NCBI GenBank assembly: GCA_024763355.1 | Contig: JANTFR010000003.1 | Location: 1 to 40,928, forward strand | Direction of reading: 5' to 3' | DNA length: 40,928 nt | From: Anaerolineales bacterium | GTDB lineage: Bacteria > Chloroflexota > Anaerolineae > Anaerolineales > DRKV01 | Shown here: positions 5,600 through 38,563 of the stretch, in pieces | How positions within the stretch are numbered: the first letter of the stretch is position 1 | How the letters are laid out: the number at the start of each line of letters is the position of its first letter | The notes under the pieces: generated by a model | Seen by the model: only the letters and a program-made list of their open reading frames with translations | Database searches by the model: none | What the model was told of the DNA's origin: nothing | Position numbers and translations under genes: made by a program

Positions 5600-5666
5600 A
5601 AAGTTGCGTTGTCTGTGGTAACGCCTTGACGGGATGAATGGCTGGTCAATTTAAGGAGGCGGTGTG

Positions 5667-7454
5667 ATGAAAGCAGGTATTTTGCGATTTGTGTTTGTGT
5701 TGTTTCTGGCGGGAGGCATTCTGTGGGGAGGCTATTTTGTCCTCTCCGCACATGCCGCCACGTACGGGGATGTGGTCATCAGTGAAATCATGTACGACCC
5801 GATTGGCGCAGAGCCGGATACTGAGTGGGTGGAACTCTACAACCCCGGCAGCGCTTCCGTGGACGTGGGCGGCTGGGTGTTGAGTGATACGGAGGGGACT
5901 TGCACCATTCCCTCCGGGACGAGCATCGCGGCGGGGGGCTTTTTGGTGGTTTCTCAGGCGGCGTTGAGCGATACCGATTTCATCACTATCACTAAAGTCG
6001 TCTGCACGCCCAGCGGGACGTTTGAACTGGGAGACGGCACCGGCTTCGGCACCGCTGCGGACGAATTGGCCTTGTTCAACGCCTCGGGCGAGCGCGTTTT
6101 CGGCAGTTTGGCGCTGCCTTATCCCGATATGGATGCCGGTTCTAATCAGGGCAATTCCATTGGGCTGGTTTACCCCCTGGCTGGCTGGAGCAGCGATACC
6201 GCCGACTGGGCTGTGGAAACCACAGTTGTATCCAGTACCAACTATGCTCACCACACCGCAGGCGCGCCTAACGACGGCTGGAGCGGCTACATGACCACAA
6301 ACCACACCATCACTGCCGACGGCACGGTCAACGTGGGAACCGAGTGGCAGGCCAACGGCGAGCAACTCGGCAGCGCCGATTCGGTGGATTTCTACGTTAC
6401 CTGGGACGCAGACTACATCTACGTGGGCATGGTGGGTGGGAATACAGGCTCCGACAAGTACAACGTGTTGATTGACACCGACCCCCTGGACGAGGGCGCG
6501 GACAACAGCGGAAATACCACCCCGAATTATTGCGGGGCGACCTTCGCGGAGGACGGCAAGCCCGATTATGCCATCCAACTGTACCCCGGAAACATGGCGC
6601 GTGCCCAGGCCACCGGGTCCTCCTGGATTAACTGGACGCCTAGCGACAGTGGCGGGAACATGGGAACCAATCAGGTGGAGTTTTACATTCAGAAAAGCGA
6701 CCTGGGACTGACCAGCAGCGACCCGGTGGGCTTTTACCTGTATGCCTGCAACAGCGGCGACCGCGTCTGGGCTGCCTGGCCGCCGGAAAACGAGGTAGAT
6801 ACCACCAACGTGGTCACCCAAACCACCCGTGTGGTCTTCGAGAATACCCTGGCTAACCGTTCTCCGCGCTACGAAGGTTCCATGCGCGGTGCACAGACGG
6901 TTGCCGCCGACACCACAGGTGAAAAATTGTTCTTTGACGATGCCAGCGGCGCTGTGGATTACTACGCCCGCTTGTATGTGACCACTGCCGGCGGGGGTTC
7001 CTGCACCGTGAAAGTTACTACTCGAGGCAATGCGTTGGCAACTCGGCTGGATGGCGGTTTGCGGCGTTTGTACACCATTACTCCCCAAAATTGTACTGGC
7101 TTGGCAGCAAGGATTAACCTTAAATTCAACGATGGTGCAATGAACGGCGCGCCGGATGAGTACCGGGGTGCACATCCAGATACTACCCAGTTGTACCGCT
7201 GGGACGGAACGGCTTGGACGGTAATTACATCAACTTATGATATAAACAACAAGGTCATATACACTAACGACGCGCAAAGTTCTTTCTCCCCTTGGACGGC
7301 GGGCGACCCCACTAATGCCAGCGCCCCTACCGCCATCACGCTGCAAACCTTCCGGGCTGAGGGCGGGCTTCCCCTTGCCCTTTCCCTGGGGCTGCTCTTC
7401 GGGCTGGCGGTGATTCTGGTGGGACTGCGCCTGTACCGGCGGCGCACCGTTTGA
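5667..7454 (+). CDS. Secreted lamin tail domain (LTD) protein with C-terminal membrane anchor
   Basis: Signal peptide ending AHA; DVVISEIMYDP...EWVELYNPG..VDVGGWVLSD (LTD); DOMON/carbohydrate-binding-like FYVTWDADYIYVG module; PTAITL + TM + RRR tail. Confidence 0.85.
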   Translation: MKAGILRFVFVLFLAGGILWGGYFVLSAHAATYGDVVISEIMYDPIGAEPDTEWVELYNPGSASVDVGGWVLSDTEGTCTIPSGTSIAAGGFLVVSQAALSDTDFITITKVVCTPSGTFELGDGTGFGTAADELALFNASGERVFGSLALPYPDMDAGSNQGNSIGLVYPLAGWSSDTADWAVETTVVSSTNYAHHTAGAPNDGWSGYMTTNHTITADGTVNVGTEWQANGEQLGSADSVDFYVTWDADYIYVGMVGGNTGSDKYNVLIDTDPLDEGADNSGNTTPNYCGATFAEDGKPDYAIQLYPGNMARAQATGSSWINWTPSDSGGNMGTNQVEFYIQKSDLGLTSSDPVGFYLYACNSGDRVWAAWPPENEVDTTNVVTQTTRVVFENTLANRSPRYEGSMRGAQTVAADTTGEKLFFDDASGAVDYYARLYVTTAGGGSCTVKVTTRGNALATRLDGGLRRLYTITPQNCTGLAARINLKFNDGAMNGAPDEYRGAHPDTTQLYRWDGTAWTVITSTYDINNKVIYTNDAQSSFSPWTAGDPTNASAPTAITLQTFRAEGGLPLALSLGLLFGLAVILVGLRLYRRRTV

Positions 7455-26611: not shown

Positions 26612-27055
26612 ATGACCATTCGTGTAGAAATCGTCTCTCAAGACCGCATGGTGTACGAGGGAGAGGCCGATATTGTGGTAGTGCCGGGCGTGAGCGGCGA
26701 GATGGGCATCCTGCCCAACCACTCCCCGCTGATTTCCACCTTGCAATACGGTATTCTCAAAGTGCGCCGCGGCATGGATGAGCAGGTCTTCACCGTGGCA
26801 GGCGGCGTTGTGGAAGTCCAGCCGGACATCGTTACCGTGCTGGCCGACGCGGCGGAGAACGTGGCCGAGATTGACGTGGCCCGCGCCGAAGCGGCCCGTC
26901 AGCGGGCGGAGAAGTTCCTGCAGGAAGGCCCGCCCCCCGATACGGATACTTACCTGCGCATGGAGGCGGCTCTGCGCCGCTCCAACTTGCGTTTGGAGGC
27001 CGTGCGCCGCTACGGGCGCGCTATCCGCCGCCGCCAGGAAGAAGAGAACGTCTAG
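26612..27055 (+). CDS. atpC: F1 ATP synthase subunit epsilon
   Basis: IRVEIVSQD, GEMGILPNHSP, VAGGVVEVQPDIVTVLADAAE. Confidence 0.96.
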   Translation: MTIRVEIVSQDRMVYEGEADIVVVPGVSGEMGILPNHSPLISTLQYGILKVRRGMDEQVFTVAGGVVEVQPDIVTVLADAAENVAEIDVARAEAARQRAEKFLQEGPPPDTDTYLRMEAALRRSNLRLEAVRRYGRAIRRRQEEENV

Positions 27056-27057
27056 TC

Positions 27058-28071
27058 ATGGCTCTGTTCTCGCGGGACCTGGGCATTGACCTGGGAACTA
27101 AGTTCACGCGGATTGCCTCGGGAGATGCCGTCATCGTCGAGGAGCCCACCGTCGTGGCGATTGCCATCGAGGAGGCCAAGGCCGTGGAAATCGGCCAGGC
27201 CGCCGACGATATGGACGGCCGCGTCCCGGAATCTATCGAGGTGGTGCGCCCCCTGCAAAATGGGGTGATTGCCGATTACGAGGTGACCACCATCCTGCTG
27301 GATGCTTTGCTGCGCCGCACGCGTTCGGGATTCTCCTTCGTTGGGCCGCGGGTGGCAATCTCGGTTCCCGAAGGAATCACCAGCGTGGAGCGCCGCGCCG
27401 TCCACGAGGCTGCCCTGGAAGCCGGTTCGCGGGAAGCCGTCCTGGTGCAGCAGCCCCTCGCGGCGGCCCTGGGGGCCGATTTGCCCATTGGGACGCCCTC
27501 CGGCAACATGCTCCTGAGCATCGGGGCCGGTTCCACCCAGGCGGCGGTGCTGGCGATGTACGGCATCGTCACTTCCGAGACGATGCGGGCCGGCGGCTAT
27601 GCTATGGACGAGGCTATCGTTTCCTATGCCCGCCGCAAGTACGGCGTCATCATCGGGCCGCGCGTTGCCGAGCAAATCAAAATCCGCATCGGGGCTGCCG
27701 TTCCCCAGGAGACCGGCGACAGCGTGGAAGTGCAGGGGCAGGACCAGGTCTCCGGCCTGCCGCGCCCCCTCAGTCTGACCACCGATGAAGTGGTGGAGGC
27801 CTTGCAGGAGCCGTTAGCGCAGATTGCCGAGACGGCCCGCCGCGTTCTGGAAAAAACCCCCCCGGAATTGGTCTCGGACATCATTGACCACGGCCTTGCT
27901 CTGTGCGGCGGCGGCGCTCTCCTGCGCGGGATTGACAAACTGCTCACCAAGGAACTGGGCATCCCCGCTTACCTTGTGGAGCAGCCCCGCCACGTGGTGG
28001 CCCTGGGAGCTGCCCAGGTGCTCACCCCCAGCGTCTACGCCGTCGTGCGACGCAACCTGCCGCCCTCGTAA
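27058..28071 (+). CDS. mreB: Rod shape-determining protein MreB-like actin homologue
   Basis: LGIDLGT, EPTVVA, RPLQNGVIAD, TSVERRAV, AEQIKIRIG, LEKTPPELVSDI, GGGALLRG. Confidence 0.92.
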   Translation: MALFSRDLGIDLGTKFTRIASGDAVIVEEPTVVAIAIEEAKAVEIGQAADDMDGRVPESIEVVRPLQNGVIADYEVTTILLDALLRRTRSGFSFVGPRVAISVPEGITSVERRAVHEAALEAGSREAVLVQQPLAAALGADLPIGTPSGNMLLSIGAGSTQAAVLAMYGIVTSETMRAGGYAMDEAIVSYARRKYGVIIGPRVAEQIKIRIGAAVPQETGDSVEVQGQDQVSGLPRPLSLTTDEVVEALQEPLAQIAETARRVLEKTPPELVSDIIDHGLALCGGGALLRGIDKLLTKELGIPAYLVEQPRHVVALGAAQVLTPSVYAVVRRNLPPS

Positions 28072-28072
28072 A

Positions 28073-28125
28073 GGAATGGCAGAATGGGGAATGCGGAGTG
28101 CAGAATGTAGAATGCGGAATGTAGA
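28073..28125 (+). repeat. Degenerate 7-mer tandem repeat (GAATG[C/T][G/A])
   Basis: gaatgcg gagtgca gaatgta gaatgcg gaatgta. Confidence 0.8.
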
Positions 28126-28157
28126 AAGCCCGCCTCGTGTTGAGGTCGGGCTTTTTT
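28124..28157 (+). terminator. Intrinsic terminator of the atp-mreB unit
   Basis: AAAGCCCGCCTC-GTGTT-GAGGTCGGGCTTTTTT. Confidence 0.8.
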
Positions 28158-28269
28158 GTTGCGGCGTTTGCCAGAATTGCTCTTTGGCCACATCCCCGAT
28201 GTATTCTGCTATGCGTACCGTGGCATCGTGATATGCCGCAGGTACATCATGTTGTCATGGTATTTCAGG

Positions 28270-28385
28270 GTTAACACGGAATTGTGGGGTAGGATGAGCA
28301 GACTTCCGAGATTTTCCCGGCCTGATGTTCATCCAGAGCGGCTCTCGTCGAAATCTCGGAAGTCTTTACCCCACAAATCTGAGGA
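28270..28385 (+). mobile_element. ~110-bp MITE/REP-like element, copy 3
   Basis: TAACACGGAATTGTGGGGTAG...AGACTTCCGAGATTT...AAATCTCGGAAGTCTTTACCCCACAAATCTG; nested inverted repeats. Confidence 0.78.
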
Positions 28386-28394
28386 GAGCCATAT

Positions 28395-28490
28395 TTCATA
28401 AATCCCCTGGGCACTGGACAATACCGCTTCGCGGATGTAAGGGCTGATGGCCTGCTCAGTGACCAGGTCCACTTTGCGCCCAGCCAAGGC
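28395..28490 (-). pseudogene. C-terminal remnant of an MNT (minimal nucleotidyltransferase) antitoxin-like gene
   Basis: Manual translation ALAGRKVDLVTEQAISPYIREAVLSSAQGIYE; no N-terminal GS..R/SDxD part between it and the rex stop. Confidence 0.65.
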
Positions 28491-28516
28491 ACCTGTGCCC
28501 TCTTGCCTGCTCCCTC

Positions 28517-29143
28517 CTAGCGCGGTGCCAGATAGTACGTCATGTGCTGCAAATGGATGACGGGGTCAATGTGCTCCACGCGTATCCCCTCGCGCACGGC
28601 CAGATTGACCGGGGCGTAATTCAGGATGGCGCGTACGCCGACGGCAATCAGTTTGTCGGCGGTCTCCTGTGCCACCTCCGCCGGAACGGCCAGCATTGCC
28701 ACCTGGATGCTTCCCTCCGCGATGAGGCGCTCCATATCGGCCACATCCCGTACTTCAATACCGTTGATGACCTTGCCGATTTTGGCGGGGTCGCTGTCGA
28801 ACAGCATGGCGACGCGAAAGCCGTGCTCCTGAAAACCTTGGTAGCGCGCCAGGGCGCTGCCTACGTCTCCCGCTCCAATGACGGCCACATCCCAAACGCG
28901 GTCCACTTTCAGGATGCGGATGAGTTGCTTCTTCAAAAAGGGAATGTGATAGCCGGTGCCTTGTTTGCCGAATTCGCCGAACTGGGATAAATCCTTGCGA
29001 ATCTGCGCCGCGGAGATGCCCAATCGGGCGCCCAGTTCGTGGGAAGAAACGTATTCCAGGCCCTCTTCCTCCATGCGGCTGATGGCGCGCAAGTAGAGGG
29101 GCAGGCGGCTGACAACGATATCCGGGATGATGGGGCGTGTCAT
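28517..29143 (-). CDS. rex: Redox-sensing transcriptional repressor Rex
   Basis: IPDIVVSRLPLYLR, AAQIRKDLSQFGEFGKQGTGY, VIGAGDVGSAL, AILNYAP. Confidence 0.97.
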   Translation of the reverse strand: MTRPIIPDIVVSRLPLYLRAISRMEEEGLEYVSSHELGARLGISAAQIRKDLSQFGEFGKQGTGYHIPFLKKQLIRILKVDRVWDVAVIGAGDVGSALARYQGFQEHGFRVAMLFDSDPAKIGKVINGIEVRDVADMERLIAEGSIQVAMLAVPAEVAQETADKLIAVGVRAILNYAPVNLAVREGIRVEHIDPVIHLQHMTYYLAPR

Positions 29144-29258
29144 GCGGTCTCCTTGGCAATCCCGATGAACAAGAACCTGTCCGAAAACTTATGAAATGGC
29201 CTTTCCAGGCTGGTTGGAAAGGCCGCCTAACAACATGTTTCGGATAGACTCTGATAAT

Positions 29259-29293
29259 ATGAGAAATTTACCACAAAGTCCCCTTTTCCGCAA
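29259..29293 (-). promoter_or_regulatory. rex promoter with overlapping degenerate Rex-like box
   Basis: TTGCGG-17 bp-TAAATT; TTGTGGT-AAAT-TTCTCAT (4 mismatches to consensus) covers the -10. Confidence 0.5.
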
Positions 29294-29320
29294 ATCAGGC
29301 AAACGTACGCGGACGGCTGC

Positions 29321-30100
29321 TCACAGGTTGAGCAGGATGACGTTCTGCCCGTTCACCCGGCCGACATCCAGTTCCGTGCCGTATGTGGCGCTCAGATTGG
29401 CAGCGTTGAAGACTTCCTCCAATCTGCCATGTTTCAGGACACGCCCGCCGCGCATCAGAATTACGTTGTCAGCGATAACCGCTGCGGATTCTGGGTCGTG
29501 GGTCGTATAAATTACGGTTATCTTCCGGTTCGCGAGGGCGCGCATGATTTGGAGGACGCGTTTTTTGTTGGCAAGGTCGAGATGGGCGGTTGGTTCGTCG
29601 AACAAGAGAATTTGGGGAGATTGAGCAAGGGTACGGGCAATCAAGGCCAATTGATGCTCGCCACCGCTCAAGGTGGTAACTGCCCGGTGAGAGAGTGCAT
29701 CCAGGCCTAAATCGTGGAGCGCCGTTCTGGCGGCCTGGATGTCTTCCGGTTGGGGGGTGGAGAAAAAGCCCAAATGCGGGGTGCGCCCCAAAAGGACGTA
29801 TTCCAGCACACGGTAATCGAAAGGGGTATGCTCGCGTTGAGGCACCAGCCCCAGGGTGCGGCTCAATTCCCGATGTGAGTAATCTCCCAGAGGGGTGCCG
29901 CGCAACAGAATTGTGCCGTCCTTCGGCGTGTATCTTCCCAGAAGAAGATACAGCAAGGTAGATTTTCCTGCCCCGTTGGGGCCAAGGATGGCATTGACCG
30001 TTCCTGAGAAGATGTCAAAAGATACGGAGTGCAGCGCCTCGGTGGCCGCCTCAGGGTAGGAGAAGAGCACGTTTTGCAGGCTGAGCAATGGCGTAGTCAT
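29321..30100 (-). CDS. ABC transporter ATP-binding subunit (FecE/BtuD type)
   Basis: GPNGAGKST, LSGGEHQ, LLFDEPTAHLD, TTHDP; ATG 30100 overlaps the permease stop. Confidence 0.93.
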   Translation of the reverse strand: MTTPLLSLQNVLFSYPEAATEALHSVSFDIFSGTVNAILGPNGAGKSTLLYLLLGRYTPKDGTILLRGTPLGDYSHRELSRTLGLVPQREHTPFDYRVLEYVLLGRTPHLGFFSTPQPEDIQAARTALHDLGLDALSHRAVTTLSGGEHQLALIARTLAQSPQILLFDEPTAHLDLANKKRVLQIMRALANRKITVIYTTHDPESAAVIADNVILMRGGRVLKHGRLEEVFNAANLSATYGTELDVGRVNGQNVILLNL

Positions 30101-31089
30101 CGGTTGATTTTCAGTTGCTGAGTGGTCATCAAGAAAGCAAAGACCAGGGCGCCAATCAGTGAGGTGATGATGCCCAAAGGGATTTCGCCGGCGAGGAGAG
30201 TGCGAGCAAGGTTGTCGCACAGCAAGGTGAAGATGCCTCCTATCAGCATAGCCGCCGGCAAAGCGTACTGTGTGTTCGCACCAAAGAAACGCCGCGCCAG
30301 ATGGGGAATAATCAATCCGACCCAGCCAATCATACCGGCTACGGAAATTACGGGGGCAGCAGAGGTGACCGCCAGTACCAACAAGATAGTGCGTTCACGT
30401 GCCGGGGCCGTTCCCAGGGAGAATGCAGTTCCATCCGACAACGAAAGGACGTTGAGCCGCCAGCGGGTCAGGTATAGCACCAGGAGGGAAGGAAGAACCG
30501 CGGGCAGGATGGCAAGCAGACTTTGCCAGCGCGTCCCCCACAGCCCGCCCAGCAGCCAGAAAGTGATTTCGGGAAGTTGGGTGAGAGGGTCGGCCATGTA
30601 TTTGAGCAGGCCGACCCCGGACGCGAAGAGAGCGGAAACCGCAATTCCGGCAAGTACCATGCGCAACACCCAACCACCATAACGCAGATATTTCGCCAGT
30701 AAGTAGGAGAAGAGAAGACCCAGCAAAGCGAAAAACGCGGCGCTGAGTTGTATCCACAGGGGGGAGGCGTTGAGAGTCAGAATAGCCAACGCCGCTCCGA
30801 ATGCCGCCCCCTGGGATACCCCCAGAAATCCCGGCTCGACCAGCGGGTTGCGGAACAGTGTTTGCATGACCATGCCGCTTGCTGACAAAGCCGCTCCCAG
30901 GATAAAGGCCGTCAAAATCCTGGGGAGGCGGAGGCTGAAGACGAGACGATATGCTAACGGTTCTGTCTGAAGGGACAGAGAGAACGGCGAGACAGGGTAT
31001 CTGCCTACAAAGAGAGATGCTCCTAATCCCAGTATGGAGGCCAGAATCAGGAGCGTGAAAGCGAATAAGGAGGAGCGATTGGAGCGCAC
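30097..31089 (-). CDS. ABC transporter permease (FecCD/BtuC type II)
   Basis: LRLPRI, QTLFRNPLVEPGFLGVSQGA, FWLLG, GWVGLIIPHLAR, EIPLGIITSLIG. Confidence 0.94.
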   Translation of the reverse strand: MRSNRSSLFAFTLLILASILGLGASLFVGRYPVSPFSLSLQTEPLAYRLVFSLRLPRILTAFILGAALSASGMVMQTLFRNPLVEPGFLGVSQGAAFGAALAILTLNASPLWIQLSAAFFALLGLLFSYLLAKYLRYGGWVLRMVLAGIAVSALFASGVGLLKYMADPLTQLPEITFWLLGGLWGTRWQSLLAILPAVLPSLLVLYLTRWRLNVLSLSDGTAFSLGTAPARERTILLVLAVTSAAPVISVAGMIGWVGLIIPHLARRFFGANTQYALPAAMLIGGIFTLLCDNLARTLLAGEIPLGIITSLIGALVFAFLMTTQQLKINR

Positions 31090-31093
31090 AGGG

Positions 31094-32212
31094 TTAGCGA
31101 AGCGGAGTGGCGGGCAGAGTTATCAGAGGCAGGATTTGTTCGCTGACAACCGATTTATCCAGATTGTAGAGGCTGCCGTAGAAATCGTAGACCTCGTTCT
31201 CCATCTCCAGGTCTGTAAACAGGTCAGGATGGGTTTGGGTTGCCATCCAGGTGAGGCACAAAATCCAGCGCGGGTCTGGCTGGTCCCAACTGTAGAAATC
31301 TCTGGGGACTGCAAAAATCTGGCTGTTCTGCACGGCTTGCAGACTTTGGGTGAGGGGATTTCCCTGAAGGTCCTTGATGGCCTCGTTGGTGTCGCCGAAG
31401 TAATCTACGATGTAAATCTGTTCCGGATTCCAGACGGCGACTTGCTCCAGCCCGACCACGGTCCAGCGGGAACCGAGTTCTGCATCCAGCCAGACAGGCG
31501 CTCCGCCGGCCAGTTTGAGCATTGTCGTCTGCATCCAGTCTGCTGGCGGCACATTGTAAGATATTTCGCCGCCTTTGGTGGAATACTGGAGGAAAAGGAC
31601 GGATGGCTTGTCGTCGTCTGCCACTTTGCTAACCGCATCCTCGATATGCTGCATCCGCTCCTGATAAAACGAGATGATTTCCTGTGCGCGGGCCTCGTTT
31701 TGGAAAATGACCCCGAAACGCTGGATATCCTGAAAAAATCCTTCGGGTGTTTCGGAACTCAAATAGACTACTGGCACGCCCAGCCCCTCAACGGCCGCCC
31801 CCAGTTTTTTTGCCATCGAGTCTTTGATGATAATCAAGTCTGGATTGACGGTGGCGATTTGCTCTGGCCCGGCATCGCCTTCCAAGACCAACTTTTCATC
31901 GGCCTTTGGCTCGACGAGATATAGAAAATCGTTGCCCTGGCCGGATTTGGCAATCGCGGCGACCTTTGTAAGGGCCTCAGGGAAGAGATAAGCCTCGTCC
32001 ACCAGCATCAGGTTGGCGAAACCCGCGATAACGATACGGGAGGGGGGCGCTTCGAGGGTGACGGTGCGTCCCAGGTCGTCTTCGAGTACGATGGGGGTGG
32101 GTTGGGCTGCCTCCTCTGTGGCGGCAGGCGTCTGTGGAGCGGGAGCGCAGGCGCTGAGCAGCATCGCCGATAGCGAGAACAGGATGAAAGTAAAACGAAG
32201 CAAGGTTTTCAT
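31094..32212 (-). CDS. ABC substrate-binding lipoprotein (helical-backbone class III)
   Basis: Lipobox LSAC; DDLGRTVTL..PPSRIV, EQIATVNPDLII, EQVAVWNPEQI, LQAVQNSQIF. Confidence 0.92.
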   Translation of the reverse strand: MKTLLRFTFILFSLSAMLLSACAPAPQTPAATEEAAQPTPIVLEDDLGRTVTLEAPPSRIVIAGFANLMLVDEAYLFPEALTKVAAIAKSGQGNDFLYLVEPKADEKLVLEGDAGPEQIATVNPDLIIIKDSMAKKLGAAVEGLGVPVVYLSSETPEGFFQDIQRFGVIFQNEARAQEIISFYQERMQHIEDAVSKVADDDKPSVLFLQYSTKGGEISYNVPPADWMQTTMLKLAGGAPVWLDAELGSRWTVVGLEQVAVWNPEQIYIVDYFGDTNEAIKDLQGNPLTQSLQAVQNSQIFAVPRDFYSWDQPDPRWILCLTWMATQTHPDLFTDLEMENEVYDFYGSLYNLDKSVVSEQILPLITLPATPLR

Positions 32213-32754
32213 AGAGACTTGTCCTTATGGGAGATGATGGTGTGGAAGAGTTTGGTGGGAATTGTATCGCGATTCTCTTTGTCCAGAACGATGATGGATG
32301 GCTTCAATCTGCCAAGCCTATTCTTAAGTGACTCCATCAGTGAGGGGCGCATGGTGACGATAGCCAGGCGGTATCCGGCGTTCTCCAGGGCCGGGAGAGC
32401 GCGGGTCAACCCCCGCCCCTGTATGAGTTCCAGGGGGCCGATTTCATCTATCAGGAGAAGGTCTGTCCTGGAGATTGCATCGAGACAGGTGTTTCCCCAG
32501 GCAATCGTATCTTTGTCCATGCGCCAGTAGCCAATATCAGGAGTTTCATGCGGTAACGCTCTTCTGGCAAATGGCCGCTCTTCCCCTGTTGCTACATTCT
32601 GGAGATGGATAGCGGTTTTCTCTCCCGCCTGAAAAATGGGGATAGACAGGATTCCCGCGGCGCTCAGGTTGTTCTGTTGGACAGTGTCTAGCAGCCGAGC
32701 GCACGCGGTTGTTTTTCCGGAGCCGGATGGCGCGGAAAGAAGGACTAGTTTCAT
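32209..32754 (-). CDS. P-loop NTPase (THEP1/NTPase_1 or DUF2478-like)
   Basis: MKLVLLSAPSGSGKTT, LLLIDEIGPLEL, LDKENRD. Confidence 0.85.
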   Translation of the reverse strand: MKLVLLSAPSGSGKTTACARLLDTVQQNNLSAAGILSIPIFQAGEKTAIHLQNVATGEERPFARRALPHETPDIGYWRMDKDTIAWGNTCLDAISRTDLLLIDEIGPLELIQGRGLTRALPALENAGYRLAIVTMRPSLMESLKNRLGRLKPSIIVLDKENRDTIPTKLFHTIISHKDKSL

Positions 32755-32801
32755 GCGAAATCTTTCGTAGAGGGGATAGAAGCGGTCATCCGCCGCGGGG
32801 G

Positions 32802-33122
32802 TCAAATCACCAGCGTTGCCATGTCTGCGCCAAAGAGTGCCAGTCGGTCGCCATCCTTGATGGTGACGCACAAATCCCAGTTGTGACAATCTTCGCAGAA
32901 TTGCTGGTAGCCGAGATAGTCCGCCATGCGATTATGCGTGGTGAGCAATTTACTATTCAGAAAGACGGTGTAAAGCGTGTCACGGGGAATGCCGATGCGC
33001 TGCAACAAATCGTCCAGCGTCTCCATCGGGCGAGCGGGTACTTCGATGATACCCTGCGTACCGATTTCCCGGTCCGTCTTGTATATTTTACGCAGGCGCC
33101 CATACAGAACAATCGTGACCAT
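32802..33122 (-). CDS. MoaD/ThiS-like beta-grasp protein lacking terminal Gly-Gly, with Cys-rich insert
   Basis: MVTIVLYGRLR...TLDDLLQRIGIP...VFLNSKL...CEDCHNWDLC..IKDGDRLALFGADMATLVI. Confidence 0.75.
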   Translation of the reverse strand: MVTIVLYGRLRKIYKTDREIGTQGIIEVPARPMETLDDLLQRIGIPRDTLYTVFLNSKLLTTHNRMADYLGYQQFCEDCHNWDLCVTIKDGDRLALFGADMATLVI

Positions 33123-33159
33123 GATTTGCTTTTTCTTCTCTCCGGCGGGAAGCGGGGGG

Positions 33160-33969
33160 CTATTTGTCCGTCGAAGCGTGGGCTTCCTGAACATATTGGA
33201 TGGCGATATGGGCAGTATCAGCATTCTTGTCGGGGATGATGTGCACGGCTGCACCACGCCCGGCTTTGTGCAGCACCAGGCTGGCATGTTGGATGTACGG
33301 GTCTCTGTTGGGGTAAGGGTAGAAAGCCAGGCTTTCCCAGCCGTGGAAAGGTGCCTCCCGCAAATAGAAAATTTGCAGCGCATCCGCCGGGCCTGAACCT
33401 CGATAGGCTTCCCATGTGGATGAGGCTTCCGCCTGGGGATAAATGGCCTCAATGGGAGCGGCTTGAGACCCTCGCGGCAATGGCATGCCCAGGGGCGATA
33501 CATGGACGCCCTCGACGTGGGCGGAGAAGCGCAAACTGGCAACCATGCGCGAGACGACCGGTTGAAAGGTCTCTTTCTCATCCTTTCGGTGGGTGACCAT
33601 TAAATGCAGGATGATGCCGCCTGCCGAAAGGATGCCCGTCCACAGCCGGCGGTTATCACGCCGCGGCAAGAGCAGTTCGGCCTCGAACCCTCGAGCACTA
33701 CCGACTTCAAAGGGAGCGGAACCGACCTTCTTGGCCGTGTGCATGACGGCGATTTTAGTCAGATGCTGACTCCACAACGGTTCGACAGGCCGTTGATAGG
33801 GGTTGTATTCGGCGCGGACGAGCAGATAGCCCATCCGCGGCCCGTGGTAGGCTGTATCTAGCGCCTCGCGGTGCATCGCAAAGGCTTCTACGTCGCCATG
33901 CGTGGCATGTACCCACTCGTTGGGATAGGTGACCTCGTAGCCCCAAAAATGCTGTTGAAAGACAGCCAT
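33160..33969 (-). CDS. Hypothetical protein
   Basis: 269-aa ORF tightly spaced within the operon; the WGYEVTYPNEW start is weakly PsbP-like. Confidence 0.75.
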   Translation of the reverse strand: MAVFQQHFWGYEVTYPNEWVHATHGDVEAFAMHREALDTAYHGPRMGYLLVRAEYNPYQRPVEPLWSQHLTKIAVMHTAKKVGSAPFEVGSARGFEAELLLPRRDNRRLWTGILSAGGIILHLMVTHRKDEKETFQPVVSRMVASLRFSAHVEGVHVSPLGMPLPRGSQAAPIEAIYPQAEASSTWEAYRGSGPADALQIFYLREAPFHGWESLAFYPYPNRDPYIQHASLVLHKAGRGAAVHIIPDKNADTAHIAIQYVQEAHASTDK

Positions 33970-33971
33970 GC

Positions 33972-34211
33972 TCAGCCTCCACCTACGGCGGGGATGTAAG
34001 CGATGCGGGCGTCAGGCTCCGCCGGTGTATCGAAGTCAACTTGCAGCCCATTTTGCATGACTATTTTGATTTCCTGGCGTGGGATACCCAACTGGTCGCA
34101 GATTCGCCCCAGCGTGGCTCCGTCCTGAACATCCAGACGCAACGCTTCTCCAATGCCTTGTTCGGGCATGTAACGCCGTAAGGTGGCAAAAACGCGGACA
34201 TCCACTTCCAT
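33972..34211 (-). CDS. MoaD/ThiS family sulfur carrier
   Basis: VRVFATLRRY...CDQLGIP...MQNG...IAYIPAVGGG with terminal Gly-Gly. Confidence 0.92.
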   Translation of the reverse strand: MEVDVRVFATLRRYMPEQGIGEALRLDVQDGATLGRICDQLGIPRQEIKIVMQNGLQVDFDTPAEPDARIAYIPAVGGG

Positions 34212-34242
34212 AAGAAATGTTTCCTGAACAGTCTGGATAAAT

Positions 34243-34276
34243 GACAGACGCGAGCAGTTGATAGCCCGCGTCTGTC
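34243..34276 (-). terminator. Intra-operon hairpin after aor (mRNA stabiliser or weak terminator)
   Basis: GACAGACGCG...CGCGTCTGTC 10-bp stem with a poor U tract. Confidence 0.5.
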
Positions 34277-34291
34277 GTCGAAGCGTAAATC

Positions 34292-36046
34292 TTATTCGTG
34301 AACCCAGGCGTATACTTCATCTAGCACTTCGTCGGGGACATCCCAGACGGTATTGTGCGGCGGTAATGGCTCAGTACGCATGAATTCCGGCAGGCGGTCG
34401 TCTTCTTTGGTGAAGCCGGCCCGCTCATTGAACAGGCGCTCCATGCGCAAAATTTCTTTGCCCATCGGCACCACGTCTGCACCGGTGATATCCATTCCCA
34501 TCACGCCCGCCACACTTTCGGCCATCCCTTCCCATCCTTCGGGGATGTCCAGAATGGGGAAAGCGATGAACAGGCAGTAGCCGGTACTGTCAATGAAAGC
34601 GGTCGCGGCTTGGAAGGTCAGGGAAAGTTCTGCCTTGCCTTCAATGCTCATTGGATCCACCTTGCCGCCTACGCCGGCGATTTCGGGGGCGATGGTGTAG
34701 CCGGATGTATGGTCGGCCCCCATGGTGGACGTGGCGTACGTCACGCCAATACCTTTGATGGCGCGCGGCTCGTAGGCCGGCATGGATTGCCCCTTGACGG
34801 TTGGGACGCGGTAGAGACCGAAGGCTTTAGCCGTGGCCTCTACTCCCTGGCCGAGGATACGTCCTAAGGGGGTCCCTTTGGCAATCTCCTCGAAGAGCGC
34901 CAGTGCGCCCTCTTTGTCGCCGAATTCAAGCAGGCCGCCTTCCATGGCTACGGCAATTGTGTTGCCGGCCTCGATGGTATCCATGCCAAGGTCGTTGCAG
35001 TATTTGGTCATCTGGGCCACGAAATCCAAATCGTCAATGCCACAGTTGGAGCCCAAAGCCATGGCCGTTTCGTACTCAACCGGCGAGGCGATAATCTGGC
35101 CGTCAGGGCCGGGGTAAACATTGGAGCATTGAATAATGCAGCCCGGATGGCAGGCGTGACCGGTTTGTCCTGCCTTGCGCTTTTCCACCATTTCCGCAAT
35201 CATCTCACCGGAAATCTTGGCGGCGCCTTCGAACTGTCCGGAACTGAAATTGCGGGTGGGCAGGCCGCCGGCCTCGTTGATGATGTTCATCAGCACGTCC
35301 GTGCCGTAAGCGTTCAATCCGCCGTTCTTCTTGGTCAGGTCGTGGGCCTGAATAGCCTTGGTCAGTTTGCGGCGTCCTTGTTTGAACAACTCGGGGTTGG
35401 CGATATGTACGCCGGGGCCGCCTTTGTCGTCTACTACGATGGCTTTCACGCCACGCGCCCCCATGACAGCGCCCAGGCCGCCGCGTCCGGCATATCGACC
35501 GGGGTTGTTCTCCGGGTCGTTTACGGAAATGCCGGCGTTGGTGAGTTTGCGCTCGCCCACTGGCCCGATGCCGATGACCGCTGGCTTGTGGGGATAACGC
35601 TCCCACATGACTTTGTCCACTTCTTCCATGCCCTTACCGAGCAGGTCACTGGCGTCCTCGAACTTGACGCCGTCTTTGTCAATGAAGATAGAGTACCACT
35701 TGCCGTCTTTGGGCTGGCCTTCCAGAATGATGGCTGCGATGCCCAATTTACCGATTTTCTGGCTGGACAGGCCGCCGGAATTGGACTCCTTGATTGTCCC
35801 GGTCAGCGGGCTTTTCGCACCAAACGAAGTGCGCCCGCTGCTGGGGGCGGCGGGAGTCCCGGAAACCCATCCCGGGGCGATGACCAGTTTGTTGTTTGGC
35901 CCTAGCGGGTGACAGGTTGGCTCGACTTCATCGAAAATGATGGCGGAAGTCAATCCGCGACCGCCCCATTTGGCCCACTTTTCAGGAATATCCTCATAAG
36001 TAGCCGAAAGGTCGGTCATGTTGATACGAAGAATTTTTCTGGCCAT
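34292..36046 (-). CDS. aor: Tungsten-type aldehyde:ferredoxin oxidoreductase
   Basis: WGGRGL, KSPLTGTIKESNSGG, AGRGGLGAVMG..KAI, LPTRNF, CHPGCIIQC, EYET, NDLGMDTI, DSTGYCLF, FNERAG..DDRLP. Confidence 0.96.
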   Translation of the reverse strand: MARKILRINMTDLSATYEDIPEKWAKWGGRGLTSAIIFDEVEPTCHPLGPNNKLVIAPGWVSGTPAAPSSGRTSFGAKSPLTGTIKESNSGGLSSQKIGKLGIAAIILEGQPKDGKWYSIFIDKDGVKFEDASDLLGKGMEEVDKVMWERYPHKPAVIGIGPVGERKLTNAGISVNDPENNPGRYAGRGGLGAVMGARGVKAIVVDDKGGPGVHIANPELFKQGRRKLTKAIQAHDLTKKNGGLNAYGTDVLMNIINEAGGLPTRNFSSGQFEGAAKISGEMIAEMVEKRKAGQTGHACHPGCIIQCSNVYPGPDGQIIASPVEYETAMALGSNCGIDDLDFVAQMTKYCNDLGMDTIEAGNTIAVAMEGGLLEFGDKEGALALFEEIAKGTPLGRILGQGVEATAKAFGLYRVPTVKGQSMPAYEPRAIKGIGVTYATSTMGADHTSGYTIAPEIAGVGGKVDPMSIEGKAELSLTFQAATAFIDSTGYCLFIAFPILDIPEGWEGMAESVAGVMGMDITGADVVPMGKEILRMERLFNERAGFTKEDDRLPEFMRTEPLPPHNTVWDVPDEVLDEVYAWVHE

Positions 36047-36069
36047 GCTTTTCTCCTCTCGTGAAGAAT

Positions 36070-36420
36070 TTACTCTGACCTTGTGTCGTGATGCAGTGCA
36101 TCGCGTTTAGCGAGCGCTGCTTGTAGCCGCTCCGAAAAAACTGACCCGTCGCGATATTGGTAGGGCCAGACGTACCCTTTGGAAAATATACCGATGTGGT
36201 CGCCATCGTGTAAGTCGTCTTCCAATGCCACCGTCATGCCGGGCATATCGGACAGGACAGCATTGACGAAAACGTAGGTTGTTTCTTCTGCCTGAATGCC
36301 AATCGAATCATACAAATCCTTGATTTTGGATGCTTCCGGCAGTGAGATTTTTTTAGTGGCTATAAATTTCCCGCCGAGCAATTTCGATAATTTGCCATAG
36401 ATAGCAACATCTACAATCAT
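36070..36420 (-). CDS. MoaD/ThiS-like beta-grasp protein lacking Gly-Gly, with ~35-aa C-terminal extension
   Basis: MIVDVAIYGKL...KIKDLYDSIGI...YVFVNAVL...LHDGDHIGIFS then KGYVWPYQYRDG...HHDTRSE. Confidence 0.78.
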   Translation of the reverse strand: MIVDVAIYGKLSKLLGGKFIATKKISLPEASKIKDLYDSIGIQAEETTYVFVNAVLSDMPGMTVALEDDLHDGDHIGIFSKGYVWPYQYRDGSVFSERLQAALAKRDALHHDTRSE

Positions 36421-36481
36421 GATGGGGCTCTTAATCCTGGTTCGCGCCGGTTCGCCTTGACCCAATTTTTCATACAATCAC

Positions 36482-36487
36482 ATTATA
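36482..36487 (-). promoter_or_regulatory. -10 box of the aor operon
   Basis: TATAAT about 60 nt upstream of ATG 36420; no clear -35. Confidence 0.45.
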
Positions 36488-36576
36488 GCCTTTTTTCCCT
36501 GTTTTGTGGCAGCGAGTTGATATGCAATCTGTGCTTTGTGCTTCTCAACTGGCCTCGTTTCTCCCCTGCTCGGACT

Positions 36577-36633
36577 CCGACTATCCGACCATCCCACCAT
36601 TCACTTATCGCACTATCCAACTACAACTACCCG
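36577..36633 (+). repeat. Highly degenerate 8-mer repeat related to the 18228 array
   Basis: tccgacta tccgacca tcccacca ... tcgcacta tccaacta. Confidence 0.6.
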
Positions 36634-36658
36634 CGCTCGCGCCCGACCCTATGCCCGA

Positions 36659-36667
36659 TGGTATAAT
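36659..36667 (+). promoter_or_regulatory. Extended -10 promoter of obgE, near-leaderless
   Basis: TGgTATAAT 9 nt before ATG 36677; no SD. Confidence 0.65.
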
Positions 36668-36676
36668 CCTCCCGCT

Positions 36677-37936
36677 ATGTTCATTGACGAAGTTAAAATT
36701 TACGTGCAATCGGGAAAAGGCGGCGACGGGATGGTGCACTTCCGCCGCGAAAAATACATCCCCCGCGGCGGCCCCGACGGGGGCGACGGCGGGCGCGGCG
36801 GAGATGTCACCCTGGTGGTCAATCCCCACCTGAATACCCTGGCCGCTTTCCGCCACAAGCGCCATTTTCGCGCCGCTTCCGGAGGCAAAGGCGGTCCCAA
36901 CAACCGCACCGGCAAGTCGGCGGAGCCTCTCCTGTTGGACGTGCCTCCCGGCACGGTAGTTTACGATGCCGATACGGGAGAAGTCCTGGGCGACCTGGTG
37001 GAGCCGGGACAGCGCCTCGTGGTGTGCCGCGGTGGGCGCGGCGGGCGCGGCAACGCCCGCTTTGCCACCGCCCGCCGGCAGGTTCCCCGCCTTGCGGAGC
37101 GCGGCGAACCGGGGGAGGAACGCTGGCTGCGTCTGGAACTCAAGTTGATTGCGGATGTCGGCATCGTGGGCGTGCCCAACGCGGGCAAATCTACCCTCCT
37201 TTCGACGGTCACCAACGCCAAACCGAAAATTGCGCCCTACCCCTTCACCACCCTGGAACCCAATCTGGGGGTGGCTGAACTTGATGACGAGACCAGTCTC
37301 GTTTTGGCCGACATCCCCGGCCTCATTGAGGGGGCACACCAGGGATTGGGGCTGGGCGACCAGTTCTTGCGCCACATCCAGCGCACCCGCGTCCTCATCC
37401 ACCTGTTGGACGGCACCGCCGAGAACCCGCTCCTGGATTTCCAGCAAATCAATGCCGAACTGGCCCTCTTCGACCCCGGCCTGGGGGAGAAACCTCAAGT
37501 AGTGGCTTTCAACAAGATGGATTTGCCTGAGGCCCAGGCGCGCTGGCCCCAGGTGGAAACCGCCCTGCGAGAACGCGGTTACGACCCCCTTCCCGTTTCA
37601 GCGGCTACCGGCGAGAACCTGCGGGATTTGCTCTACCGCGCCGTCCGCCTCCTGGCCGAAATTCCGCCAGAGGAGAAAACCGTGGCCGTCCCCGTCTATC
37701 GTCCCGAAAGCGACCCGCGGGCCTTCGAAATCCTGCGGGAAGGGGATGCCTGGCGGGTGCAGGGAGCGGCCATCGAGCGCGCCGCTGCCATGACCTACTG
37801 GGAGTATCCCCAGGCAGTGCGGCGTTTCCAGCGCATCCTGGAGACCCTGGGGGTGGATGCCGCCCTGCGTGAGGCGGGCGTGCAAGAGGGCGACACCGTC
37901 CTGATTGGCGATTTCACCCTCACCTGGGAGGCCTGA
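36677..37936 (+). CDS. obgE: GTPase ObgE/CgtA
   Basis: [53 protein letters not shown]-terminal OCT domain. Confidence 0.98.
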
Positions 37937-38563
37937 ATGCTGCGCCTGGGGGTTTTCGGCGGCACTTTCGACCCGCCGCACATCGGGCATCTCATCCTGG
38001 CGGCGGAGGCGCAGCATCAATTGGCGCTGGAACGCGTCCTGTGGGTTTTGGCGGCCAATCCGCCCCACAAGCACGGTTACTCCCCCGTGGAGCGGCGCCT
38101 GGCGATGGTGCAAACTGCTATCGCCAGGGAGCCGCGCTTCGTGCTCTCTCGCGTCGATATCGACCGTCCTCCCCCGCATTACGCCCTCGATACCGTGCGG
38201 ATTTTGCGGGAAGTTTACCCCGCTGCGGAACTCGTCTACCTGATGGGGAGCGACTCCCTGTTGGATTTGCCCACCTGGCATCGCCCGCGGGATTTTGTGG
38301 AGGCCTGCGACGCTTTGGGGGTGGTGCGCCGCCCTGGAGAGACTGCCACCCCGGATGAAGTCTTCCGCTCCCTGCCCGGCCTGCGGGAGAAAGTCCGCTT
38401 TGTGGATGCACCCCTCTTGCAAATTGCCTCCCGCGACATCCGGGCGCGGGCCGCTTCGGGGAGGCCGTTCCGCTACTTTCTGCCGGAGGGGGTTTACGAA
38501 CTGGTGCGCGCCTGGGGGTTGTACGCGAGGCGCACAGACCTCACAGGTCTCCGAGACCTGTGA
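37937..38563 (+). CDS. nadD: Nicotinate-nucleotide adenylyltransferase
   Basis: FGGTFDPPHIGH, PPHK, LMGSDSL..WH, IASRDIR. Confidence 0.96.
   Translation: MLRLGVFGGTFDPPHIGHLILAAEAQHQLALERVLWVLAANPPHKHGYSPVERRLAMVQTAIAREPRFVLSRVDIDRPPPHYALDTVRILREVYPAAELVYLMGSDSLLDLPTWHRPRDFVEACDALGVVRRPGETATPDEVFRSLPGLREKVRFVDAPLLQIASRDIRARAASGRPFRYFLPEGVYELVRAWGLYARRTDLTGLRDL

Follow-up and report, generated by a model that had tools for sequence, protein, structure and literature searches.

A tungstoenzyme module joined to an importer linked to the Mo/W-cofactor regulon points to possible cofactor scavenging in an Anaerolineales genome

How can an organism that has lost the genes for molybdenum cofactor (Moco) biosynthesis still supply a tungsten enzyme? 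The question is raised by nine open reading frames (ORFs) that fill positions 29321–36420 of a stretch of Anaerolineales DNA. This stretch, hereafter the window, is the entire 40,928-bp contig C3 (JANTFR010000003.1) of a metagenome-assembled genome (MAG), G000 (2.76 Mb, 285 contigs, 91% complete); it is present, whole or in part, in six DNA sequencing runs labelled hydrothermal vent metagenome, and no RNA run is listed for it. The nine ORFs share the minus strand and, in gene order, encode a ubiquitin-like protein (Ubl1), an aldehyde:ferredoxin oxidoreductase (AOR) family protein, a MoaD-like protein, a 269-residue protein (Hyp269), a second ubiquitin-like protein (Ubl2), an NTPase, a substrate-binding protein (SBP), a permease and an ATP-binding cassette (ABC) ATPase, with spacings of 23, 80, −4, 37, 47, −4, 4 and −4 nt. 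A first-pass annotation, made from the letters of the window, had seen nine co-oriented, closely spaced genes, which coordinates and family scans confirmed. It had read them as a single maturation system, in which an importer that would be auto-annotated as iron/B12 brings in tungstate or a metal-pterin, and the NTPase and Ubls deliver it to AOR. We find instead that the cluster falls into two distinct modules, which adjoin each other in this genus alone: module A (Ubl1-AOR-MoaD-like-Hyp269-Ubl2) and module B (NTPase_1-lipoprotein SBP-FecCD permease-ATPase). Module B probably serves Mo/W-cofactor supply, and its place beside AOR, the riboswitch control of its relatives and the loss of the cofactor genes together point to undescribed bacterial cofactor scavenging.

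Genome-wide searches of G000 gave 0 matches for MoaC, MoaE, MoeA_N and Mob_synth_C (the C-terminal domain of MoaA); the same searches each matched in 11 of 14 control genomes. No MogA was found in G000, where the only MoCF_biosynth match is CinA. MoaC, MoaE and MoeA queries from the same-genus genome G003 retrieved nothing (best E 0.44–4), and a MoaA query gave only weak radical-SAM matches. In G003, moaE-moaC sit between a PALP enzyme gene and ftsY (contig C165, locus L167); in G000 the PALP and ftsY genes are directly adjacent (contig C66, 3016–5137, L172), and the flanks of moaA map to contig C51, leaving no room for moaA. The moaE-moaC pair has been cleanly deleted in G000 and is not hidden in an assembly gap. 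Neither ModA nor WtpA was recognised in this genome and no TupA-like protein was named among its PF12849 hits, the PF13531 and PF12849 hits scanned being a thiamine-binding protein and PstS; ThiF/MoeB lay outside the search. The absence of moa/moe and mod/wtp genes, which had been noted for the window, holds across the 91%-complete genome, with TupA judged from the PF12849 hits and ThiF/MoeB not covered.

G000 keeps AOR, that of the window being its sole AFOR_N match, and also a MobA-like gene, which shares 53% identity with the MobA-like gene beside moaA in the same-genus genome G004. PF00384 gave two hits, one NuoG/HoxU-like and the other a cut Fdh-alpha/NuoG-like frame that scores below cut-offs and is ambiguous. 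Within the genus, the AOR module and the importer occur together in G000 and G002, from which all four Moco genes are missing; the Moco genes occur in G003 and G004, which gave neither an AFOR_N match nor an SBP orthologue. Because G000 is without MoeA, MogA and the molybdopterin (MPT) pathway, tungstate alone cannot mature AOR there. Since the Moco genes are lost, yet AOR and the MobA-like gene are kept, import of a preformed pterin cofactor becomes the most likely role of module B.

The regulation of orthologous operons ties module B to the same cofactor. We collected the 80 best SBP loci, one genome per species, counted neighbours by tblastn, and searched these loci with a covariance model built from 12 riboswitches of relatives. 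Moco/tungsten cofactor (Tuco) riboswitches (RF01055) lead the importer operon in 3 of the 80. In G019 (L108) a 61-bit copy stands directly upstream of NTPase-SBP-permease-ATPase; L039 has the order riboswitch-NTPase-SBP-permease-ATPase-DUF364 (76 bits), and L103 has a 58-bit copy, then a terminator-like hairpin, in the order riboswitch-DUF364-SBP-permease-ATPase-NTPase. An optional hairpin carried by other copies, which from the Rfam structure line we infer to be P3, is present in L103 and missing from the G019 and L039 aptamers. P3-less aptamers have been associated with tungsten cofactor genes (Regulski et al., PMC2408646). When the window and six related loci (137 kb) were first scanned with Rfam, no cobalamin riboswitch and no other riboswitch family passed the gathering score. 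A PadR regulator is encoded in 57 of the 80 SBP loci, and in none of the three with a riboswitch. The padR gene stands immediately upstream of most orthologous importer operons (e.g., L019, 10460–11002) and is absent from the riboswitch-led ones, as if the two were alternatives.

The NTPase of module B leads to the same regulon. The NTPases found behind a Moco riboswitch in G005 and G026 are 34–39% identical to that of the window (E 1e-27 and 1e-26). We examined the 80 best metagenome loci for this NTPase subfamily: 22 have a Moco riboswitch (65–104 bits), whose end in 21 is no more than 125 nt from the NTPase gene; some of the contigs are near-duplicates, so the independent cases are fewer than 22. 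Judged by the riboswitches of its orthologues and of its NTPase relatives, module B probably belongs to the Mo/W-cofactor regulon.

All riboswitch-led metagenome loci with sufficient flanks have a context of the energy-coupling factor (ECF) type. The order is NTPase_1, a fused double ABC ATPase, a weak PF09819-like membrane protein (S-component-like), a lipoprotein, CbiQ, and FmdE and/or MobB, as in L139 (G005:C213, 253–4978, minus strand), L140 (G026:C12, 1780–6985) and the metagenome examples L250, L193 and L219. The small lipoprotein matches the molybdopterin-binding family Oxidored_molyb (PF00174, 32–34 bits; cut-off 24) and has a visible lipobox. From its gene content this widespread operon looks like a putative transporter for Mo-cofactor species, and an extracytoplasmic protein with a Moco-binding fold would be a candidate for cofactor capture. 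We found no description of an ECF transporter with a Moco riboswitch in the literature searched, supplementary tables lying outside that search. In the same-genus genome G004 (C127; L030, L036, L170), two Moco riboswitches (5656–5811 and 6538–6703) are separated by about 730 nt; behind the second come genes for an FmdE-like protein and a GG-ended MoaD, and moaA and a MobA-like gene stand farther along.

The independence of the two modules emerges from their distribution. In our relatives sample (41 genomes including G000; SBP orthologues taken at E < 1e-77), eight genomes carry the SBP, G000 counted, and AOR adjoins it only in G002, where the order AOR-MoaD-Hyp269-Ubl2-NTPase-SBP recurs. Elsewhere the relatives keep SBP-permease-ATPase, often with the NTPase. 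None of the 80 SBP loci has AOR, MoaD, Ubl1, Ubl2 or Hyp269 nearby, while permease and ATPase are each present in 73 with conserved gene order (73/80), and an NTPase gene is found on the same strand within 5 kb in 46 (7 upstream, 39 downstream); of the 34 loci without it, 15 lie on contigs that end less than 3.5 kb downstream. Anaerolineae/Chloroflexota MAGs account for nearly all the closest relatives of the SBP. Conversely, Hyp269 homologues occur in 6 of the 300 other genomes of our class sample (301 Anaerolineae-class genomes, G000 included), in all six inside Ubl1-AOR-MoaD-Hyp269-Ubl2. All five module A genes are visible where contigs permit, with the exception of G317, which is without MoaD, and neither NTPase nor SBP was found near module A in these six genomes. 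Since module A recurs without the transporter and module B without AOR, we regard them as two modules joined in one genus.

The proposal of a single maturation system does not survive this distribution. The NTPase accompanies the transporter, not AOR, and the Ubls travel with AOR, with nothing to show them handling imported cargo. By gene adjacency the SBP orthologues are not linked to W/Mo enzymes, an outcome that the first-pass annotation had counted against its own proposal; the riboswitch link overrides it. The suggestion that an importer resembling iron/B12 systems carries tungstate or a metal-pterin fares better, as riboswitches and MobA-like, DUF364 and FmdE neighbours uphold the Mo/W-cofactor link and leave the two cargoes in competition. 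DUF364 adjoins the SBP in 10 of 80 loci and FmdE in 1 of 80; the G006 operon (L020, G006:C72, 1108–5504) reads DUF364-SBP-permease-ATPase-MobA-like. DUF364/DUF4213 ("putative heavy-metal chelation") recurs beside the importer and in L103 stands directly behind the Moco riboswitch, which ties this family to Mo/W-cofactor metabolism.

We asked how far the importer follows the loss of the pathway. MoaA, MoaC and MoaE are jointly missing in 5 of the 8 SBP holders among the relatives (G000, G002, G006, G030 and G034), including G030 (2 contigs) and G034 (5 contigs). Three of the five (G006, G030, G034) keep MoeA and a stand-alone MogA/MoaB-like gene, and loss of MoaA/C/E with MoeA and a MogA-like protein kept implies dependence on molybdopterin from outside. 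Among the 33 non-holders, loss of MoaA/MoaC/MoaE with AOR present occurs only in G016. In the class sample, MoaC was not found in 13 of 55 SBP holders versus 21 of 246 non-holders, and the SBP is carried by 8 of 21 MoaC-less versus 40 of 240 MoaC-positive AOR holders. The enrichment of MoaC loss in SBP holders is real but modest (odds ratio about 3), for a MoaC-less set derived from gaps in the listed genomes, groups defined after seeing the data, kin that are not independent and MAGs in which about 10% of genes are expected to be absent.

With the loss of Moco biosynthesis in the host, the preformed metal-pterin option now leads. We hypothesize that the lipoprotein SBP would capture extracellular Mo/W-pterin released by neighbours in an anoxic habitat, and that the FecCD/ATPase core would import it. 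The NTPase would most likely receive or process the cargo at the cytoplasmic side, and AOR may then be loaded with the aid of its own accessory set. The cargo would be W- or Mo-molybdopterin or, in relatives keeping mogA and moeA, possibly metal-free molybdopterin. That module B is a salvage importer for preformed pterin cofactor has, in our judgement, about an even chance of being correct, and for G000 it is the more parsimonious reading. More broadly, it is tempting to propose, with somewhat less than even confidence, that bacteria possess dedicated Mo/W-pterin salvage, in which transporters of two unrelated classes, type II and ECF-type, share an NTPase_1-subfamily partner and Moco/Tuco riboswitch control and permit the loss of moaA/moaC/moaE/mogA/moeA with tungsten enzymes still running; this would explain "orphan molybdoenzyme" genomes.

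Several observations weigh against pterin as the cargo. The window itself has no RF01055 in Rfam and covariance scans, and a weak-threshold Rfam search of 28000–37000 gave only a chance lncRNA match. Among the 80 metagenome NTPase loci, 14 have a type II context, and none of these 14 has a riboswitch. MoaC is present in 42 of the 55 SBP holders of the class, most of which make their own pterin, and the idea of an importer confined to auxotrophs was rejected on this count; a salvage route, if there is one, would be facultative, as for other cofactors. Nor does the ECF-type lipoprotein mark MoaC-less genomes: this was rejected, as the protein is found in 10 of 301 genomes, only 2 of them MoaC-less, and it was not found in G002, G006, G016, G030 or G034. 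ModA/WtpA was not recognised in G006, G030 and G034, which keep MoeA and MogA and therefore also need tungstate, and three of five well-assembled MoaC-positive SBP holders are without a strong PF13531 hit. The missing oxyanion-binding proteins are equally compatible with import of tungstate and with import of cofactor. Free Moco is described as chemically unstable (PMC9026282). The close structural neighbour MolA would be a precedent for oxyanion cargo, and the putative cargo is read from genes.

These points lead to the question of whether module B is a MolABC-like tungstate/molybdate importer, with NTPase, DUF364 and FmdE as metal-handling helpers and with pterin supplied otherwise or its loss unrelated; we consider this rather unlikely. 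Haemophilus influenzae MolBC-A, a type II importer, carries molybdate/tungstate (bioRxiv 10.64898/2026.10.15.759412; PMC4031551), MolA (3psa) is among the best structural and profile matches of our SBP, and molybdate/tungstate transporters are classical Moco-riboswitch targets (PMC2408646). Such an importer would also suit the SBP holders that synthesise their own pterin, which are the majority, and the four genomes in which ModA/WtpA or TupA-like proteins went unrecognised (G000, G006, G030, G034), three of which keep MoeA, including forms with an SBP_bac_11 tail. However, tungstate alone would yield no cofactor in G000, and G019 has a true WtpA (409 bits; cut-off 355) alongside its riboswitch-controlled importer. 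The sister NTPase operons are ECF-type with a Moco-binding-domain lipoprotein, and we know of no ECF transporter that carries oxyanions. The MolA ligands are K221, R264, Y114 and Y301 (bioRxiv 10.64898/2026.10.15.759412; we applied a chain numbering offset of 21, inferred because all four ligand residues then fit). In a profile alignment at about 18% identity, the basic ligands are replaced in the SBP family: K221 by S/D225 and R264 by a variable position. Y301 corresponds to conserved Q311, and Y114 aligns to a consensus Tyr that is S132 in the window protein. The family has its own invariant Trp, Tyr, Asp, Gln and Thr positions. Judged by these residues the SBP appears to fall outside the MolA ligand class, which is compatible with oxyanion binding by other means.

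Could module B instead be an ordinary iron-chelate, heme or corrinoid importer, its adjacency to AOR an accident of a horizontally acquired island? Its best named models are indeed Fe-siderophore, heme, B12 and F420-0 transporters, all sub-cut-off, YiuA and other siderophore binders are among the structural neighbours of the SBP, the AOR adjacency is limited to one genus, and the GC content of the cluster lies below that of most of the window. Yet Moco riboswitches stand directly upstream of three orthologous operons and ahead of 22 of 80 NTPase homologues, no further riboswitch family, cobalamin included, passed the gathering score in the 137 kb scanned, and the neighbours include MobA-like, DUF364 and FmdE genes; on balance this account is improbable. 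We also think it very unlikely that AOR is an inactive or cofactor-free orphan without any salvage, made useless by pathway loss shortly before its own decay. "Orphan molybdoprotein" organisms have been reported, with new biosynthetic components or Mo-independent forms among the suggested causes (PMC6147048), and the reverse is seen in G003 and G004, which have Moco genes and no AFOR_N match. Against it, the AOR frame is intact and 77–86% identical to orthologues, three of them (G140, G210, G236) in MoaC-positive genomes, all five module A genes are intact in an arrangement shared with G002, and the MobA-like gene is kept.

Module B can be set beside several known systems. MolBC-A (HI1470/71/72 of H. 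influenzae) resembles it in its FecCD-type permease, ABC ATPase, cluster A binding protein and Mo/W link. Unlike MolBC-A, module B has an NTPase_1 partner, PadR or Moco-riboswitch control in its orthologues and an occurrence in pterin-pathway-less genomes, and its SBP family has non-basic or variable residues at the K221 and R264 positions. BtuCD-F, HmuUV-T and FhuBCD have the same architecture and carry large organic metal chelates; module B differs from them in its sub-cut-off scores and in the regulator of its orthologues, a Moco/Tuco riboswitch, with no cobalamin riboswitch in the scanned loci. Corrinoid salvage loci offer an analogy, in that a BtuFCD type II importer is encoded alongside a P-loop protein that deals with the incoming cofactor precursor. 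The NTPase here, in contrast, is NTPase_1/THEP1-like, with no CobU model among its hits, and the cargo would be another one. The type I importers ModABC, WtpABC and TupABC share the Moco riboswitch regulon (PMC2408646; PMC3766115, "Molybdenum & tungsten transporters") but are of another transporter class with another binding-protein fold, and WtpA coexists with module B in G019.

For module A the nearest known system is aorABCDE of Aromatoleum aromaticum, which likewise combines an AOR-family gene with two MoaD-like genes, aorD and aorE, assigned a putative role in W-cofactor maturation (PMC6365974). Module A has neither AorA nor AorC, and it has three beta-grasp genes, two of them GG-less and one with a CxxC insertion, as well as an extra protein of predicted PsbP/Mog1 fold.

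The reading of module B as a pterin salvage importer would bear on a general assumption. Organisms are described as unable to take up Moco and as having to synthesise it de novo, Caenorhabditis elegans being the sole known exception (PMC9026282). Dietary Moco salvage in this nematode resembles our proposal in using Moco made by others; unlike module B, it is eukaryotic and concerns protein-bound Moco, with no transporter identified. Our literature search for a bacterial Moco or molybdopterin transporter found only nematode work and the reviews cited here; supplementary tables may list these genes. The uptake categories given in the Rodionov-group survey (PMC3766115) cover B12, thiamin, riboflavin, queuosine and folate, with none for Moco, and in comparative genomics several hundred "orphan molybdoprotein" organisms are still without an explanation (Peng et al., PMC6147048). 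If salvage is true, the textbook view that Moco must be made de novo would be overturned, and the orphan-molybdoprotein question would gain a concrete gene set, a riboswitch-linked importer and an NTPase beside a sole tungstoenzyme. If the cargo is tungstate, the MolABC-like oxyanion importers would have a second clade in module B, one that is under riboswitch regulation, has an NTPase partner and is widespread in Anaerolineae.

Judged from its gene products, module A appears to combine a cytoplasmic tungstoenzyme of the AOR family with accessory proteins of its own. The AOR gene (34292..36046, minus strand, as are all nine) encodes 584 aa with strong Pfam matches to AFOR_N (209 bits, E 6e-62; cut-off 29.8) and AFOR_C (311 bits, E 1e-92; cut-off 27), and its best PDB matches include 9mqx (E 8e-105) and 1aor (E 2e-85). 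C299, C303, C307 and C491 are invariant across five orthologues; they may correspond to the [4Fe-4S] ligands of the Pyrococcus furiosus enzyme. The MoaD-like protein (33972..34211, 79 aa, ending in IPAVGGG) combines the two features of a sulfur carrier, a beta-grasp family match (ThiS, 26.3 bits; cut-off 22.5; Ub-Mut7C, 36 bits) and a C-terminal Gly-Gly, and the terminal GGG is unchanged across all 7 orthologues.

The other three module A proteins, Ubl1, Ubl2 and Hyp269, have no family match in Pfam or NCBIfam. By hhalign, Ubl1 (36070..36420, with an ORF start possible from 36477) and Ubl2 (32802..33122, ending in DMATLVI) match the MoaD-like family with probabilities of 97.6% (E 4e-12) and 97% (E 1e-10), and the two are weak paralogues of each other (27% identity). 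Ubl1 lies upstream of AOR in four other genomes and carries a C-terminal extension of about 35 aa with a conserved WPYxYRxG. In Ubl2, an insertion of 22 residues contains a CxxC motif that is invariant but for one of six aligned sequences, which has CxxxC; the protein-atlas clusters of Ubl2 consist of hypothetical proteins from Chloroflexota that weakly resemble ThiS. Alignments and hhalign agree with the first-pass description of two Ubls without GG, one with CxxC, beside a MoaD-like protein with GGG. Neither Ubl has the Gly-Gly for thiocarboxylation, and both would be MoaD/ThiS homologues other than canonical-type sulfur carriers. Hyp269 (33160..33969), predicted to be cytosolic, has two domains and lies outside known families; its 72 homologues are all unnamed. 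In an AlphaFold2 (AF2) model (pLDDT 95; Foldseek to 2xb3, E 5e-7) the N-terminal 150 or so residues adopt a predicted PsbP/Mog1/EagT-like fold, a group of mostly protein-binding or chaperone proteins. This conserved five-gene module, in which two MoaD paralogues lack the GG end and one protein has a predicted PsbP fold, is relevant to tungstoenzyme maturation.

Module B opens with the NTPase (32209..32754), an NTPase_1 (THEP1-like) P-loop protein (PF03266, 71.4 bits; cut-off 23.9) with invariant GxGKT and DExGPLE motifs. It scores 66.7 on the NCBIfam equivalog PRK13695 against a cut-off of 156, far enough below to indicate a distinct NTPase_1/THEP1 subfamily. The SBP (31094..32212; lipobox LLSAC) is a cluster A lipoprotein of the Peripla_BP_2 family (PF01497, 74 bits), the permease (30097..31089) is FecCD/BtuC-type (PF01032, 259 bits, E 5e-77), and the ATPase (29321..30100; PF00005, ABC_tran, 111 bits, E 8e-32) is encoded by a gene overlapping that of the permease by 4 nt. 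FecCD permease, Peripla_BP_2 protein and ABC ATPase in one operon make this a type II ABC importer. It does not qualify as a vitamin B12 importer, with BtuC at 175 bits versus 461 and 173 versus 334 and BtuD at 132 versus 281; the permease also matches FhuB below cut-off, as do all the best named transporter models mentioned above. In the AF2 model of the SBP (pLDDT 93), Foldseek neighbours include 4ovk and 4hn9 (structural-genomics proteins, entries without ligand), YiuA and MolA 3psa, the last at rank 6 (TM 0.68/0.76; family profile E 3e-24).

Two observations touch the handling of oxyanions in the relatives. Four PstS-family genes in G034 and G006 were considered as hidden TupA and rejected, since each adjoins a true PstC. 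Paralogues of MoeA of about 660 aa with a C-terminal SBP_bac_11 (ModA/WtpA-like) piece occur in G019 (C71, 10054–11877), G030 (C2, 360610–361566) and G034 (C1, 440001–440963); by domain composition this piece would be a cytoplasmic oxyanion-binding domain fused to a metal insertase.

A scan of 28400–36800 predicted 6 promoters and 10 terminators versus 4.0±2.2 and 8.9±2.6 in shuffles, none of either in the 47-nt Ubl2-NTPase spacer. The GC content of the cluster region (28001–36000) is 0.556–0.577 versus 0.587–0.680 in the other 2-kb bins of the window, and AOR shares 86% identity with its counterpart in a genome from another family, where housekeeping flanks between same-genus genomes reach 75–85%. 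The lower GC, together with AOR identity at or above the level of the flanks, suggests that the cluster region was acquired horizontally. A gene for the redox-sensing repressor Rex (28517..29143, minus strand; NF003995, 266 bits; cut-off 126) is a neighbour of the cluster. In other loci, neither the AOR module nor the transporter has a Rex homologue nearby, and the Rex operator pattern gave 2 matches versus 0.83 expected, none upstream of the operon. The rex gene lies 177 nt downstream of the importer ATPase gene, on the same strand. The flanks of the cluster (26612–28071 and 36536–38563) encode ATP synthase epsilon-like, MreB-like, Obg-like GTPase and NadD-like housekeeping proteins, named by eye from their translations.

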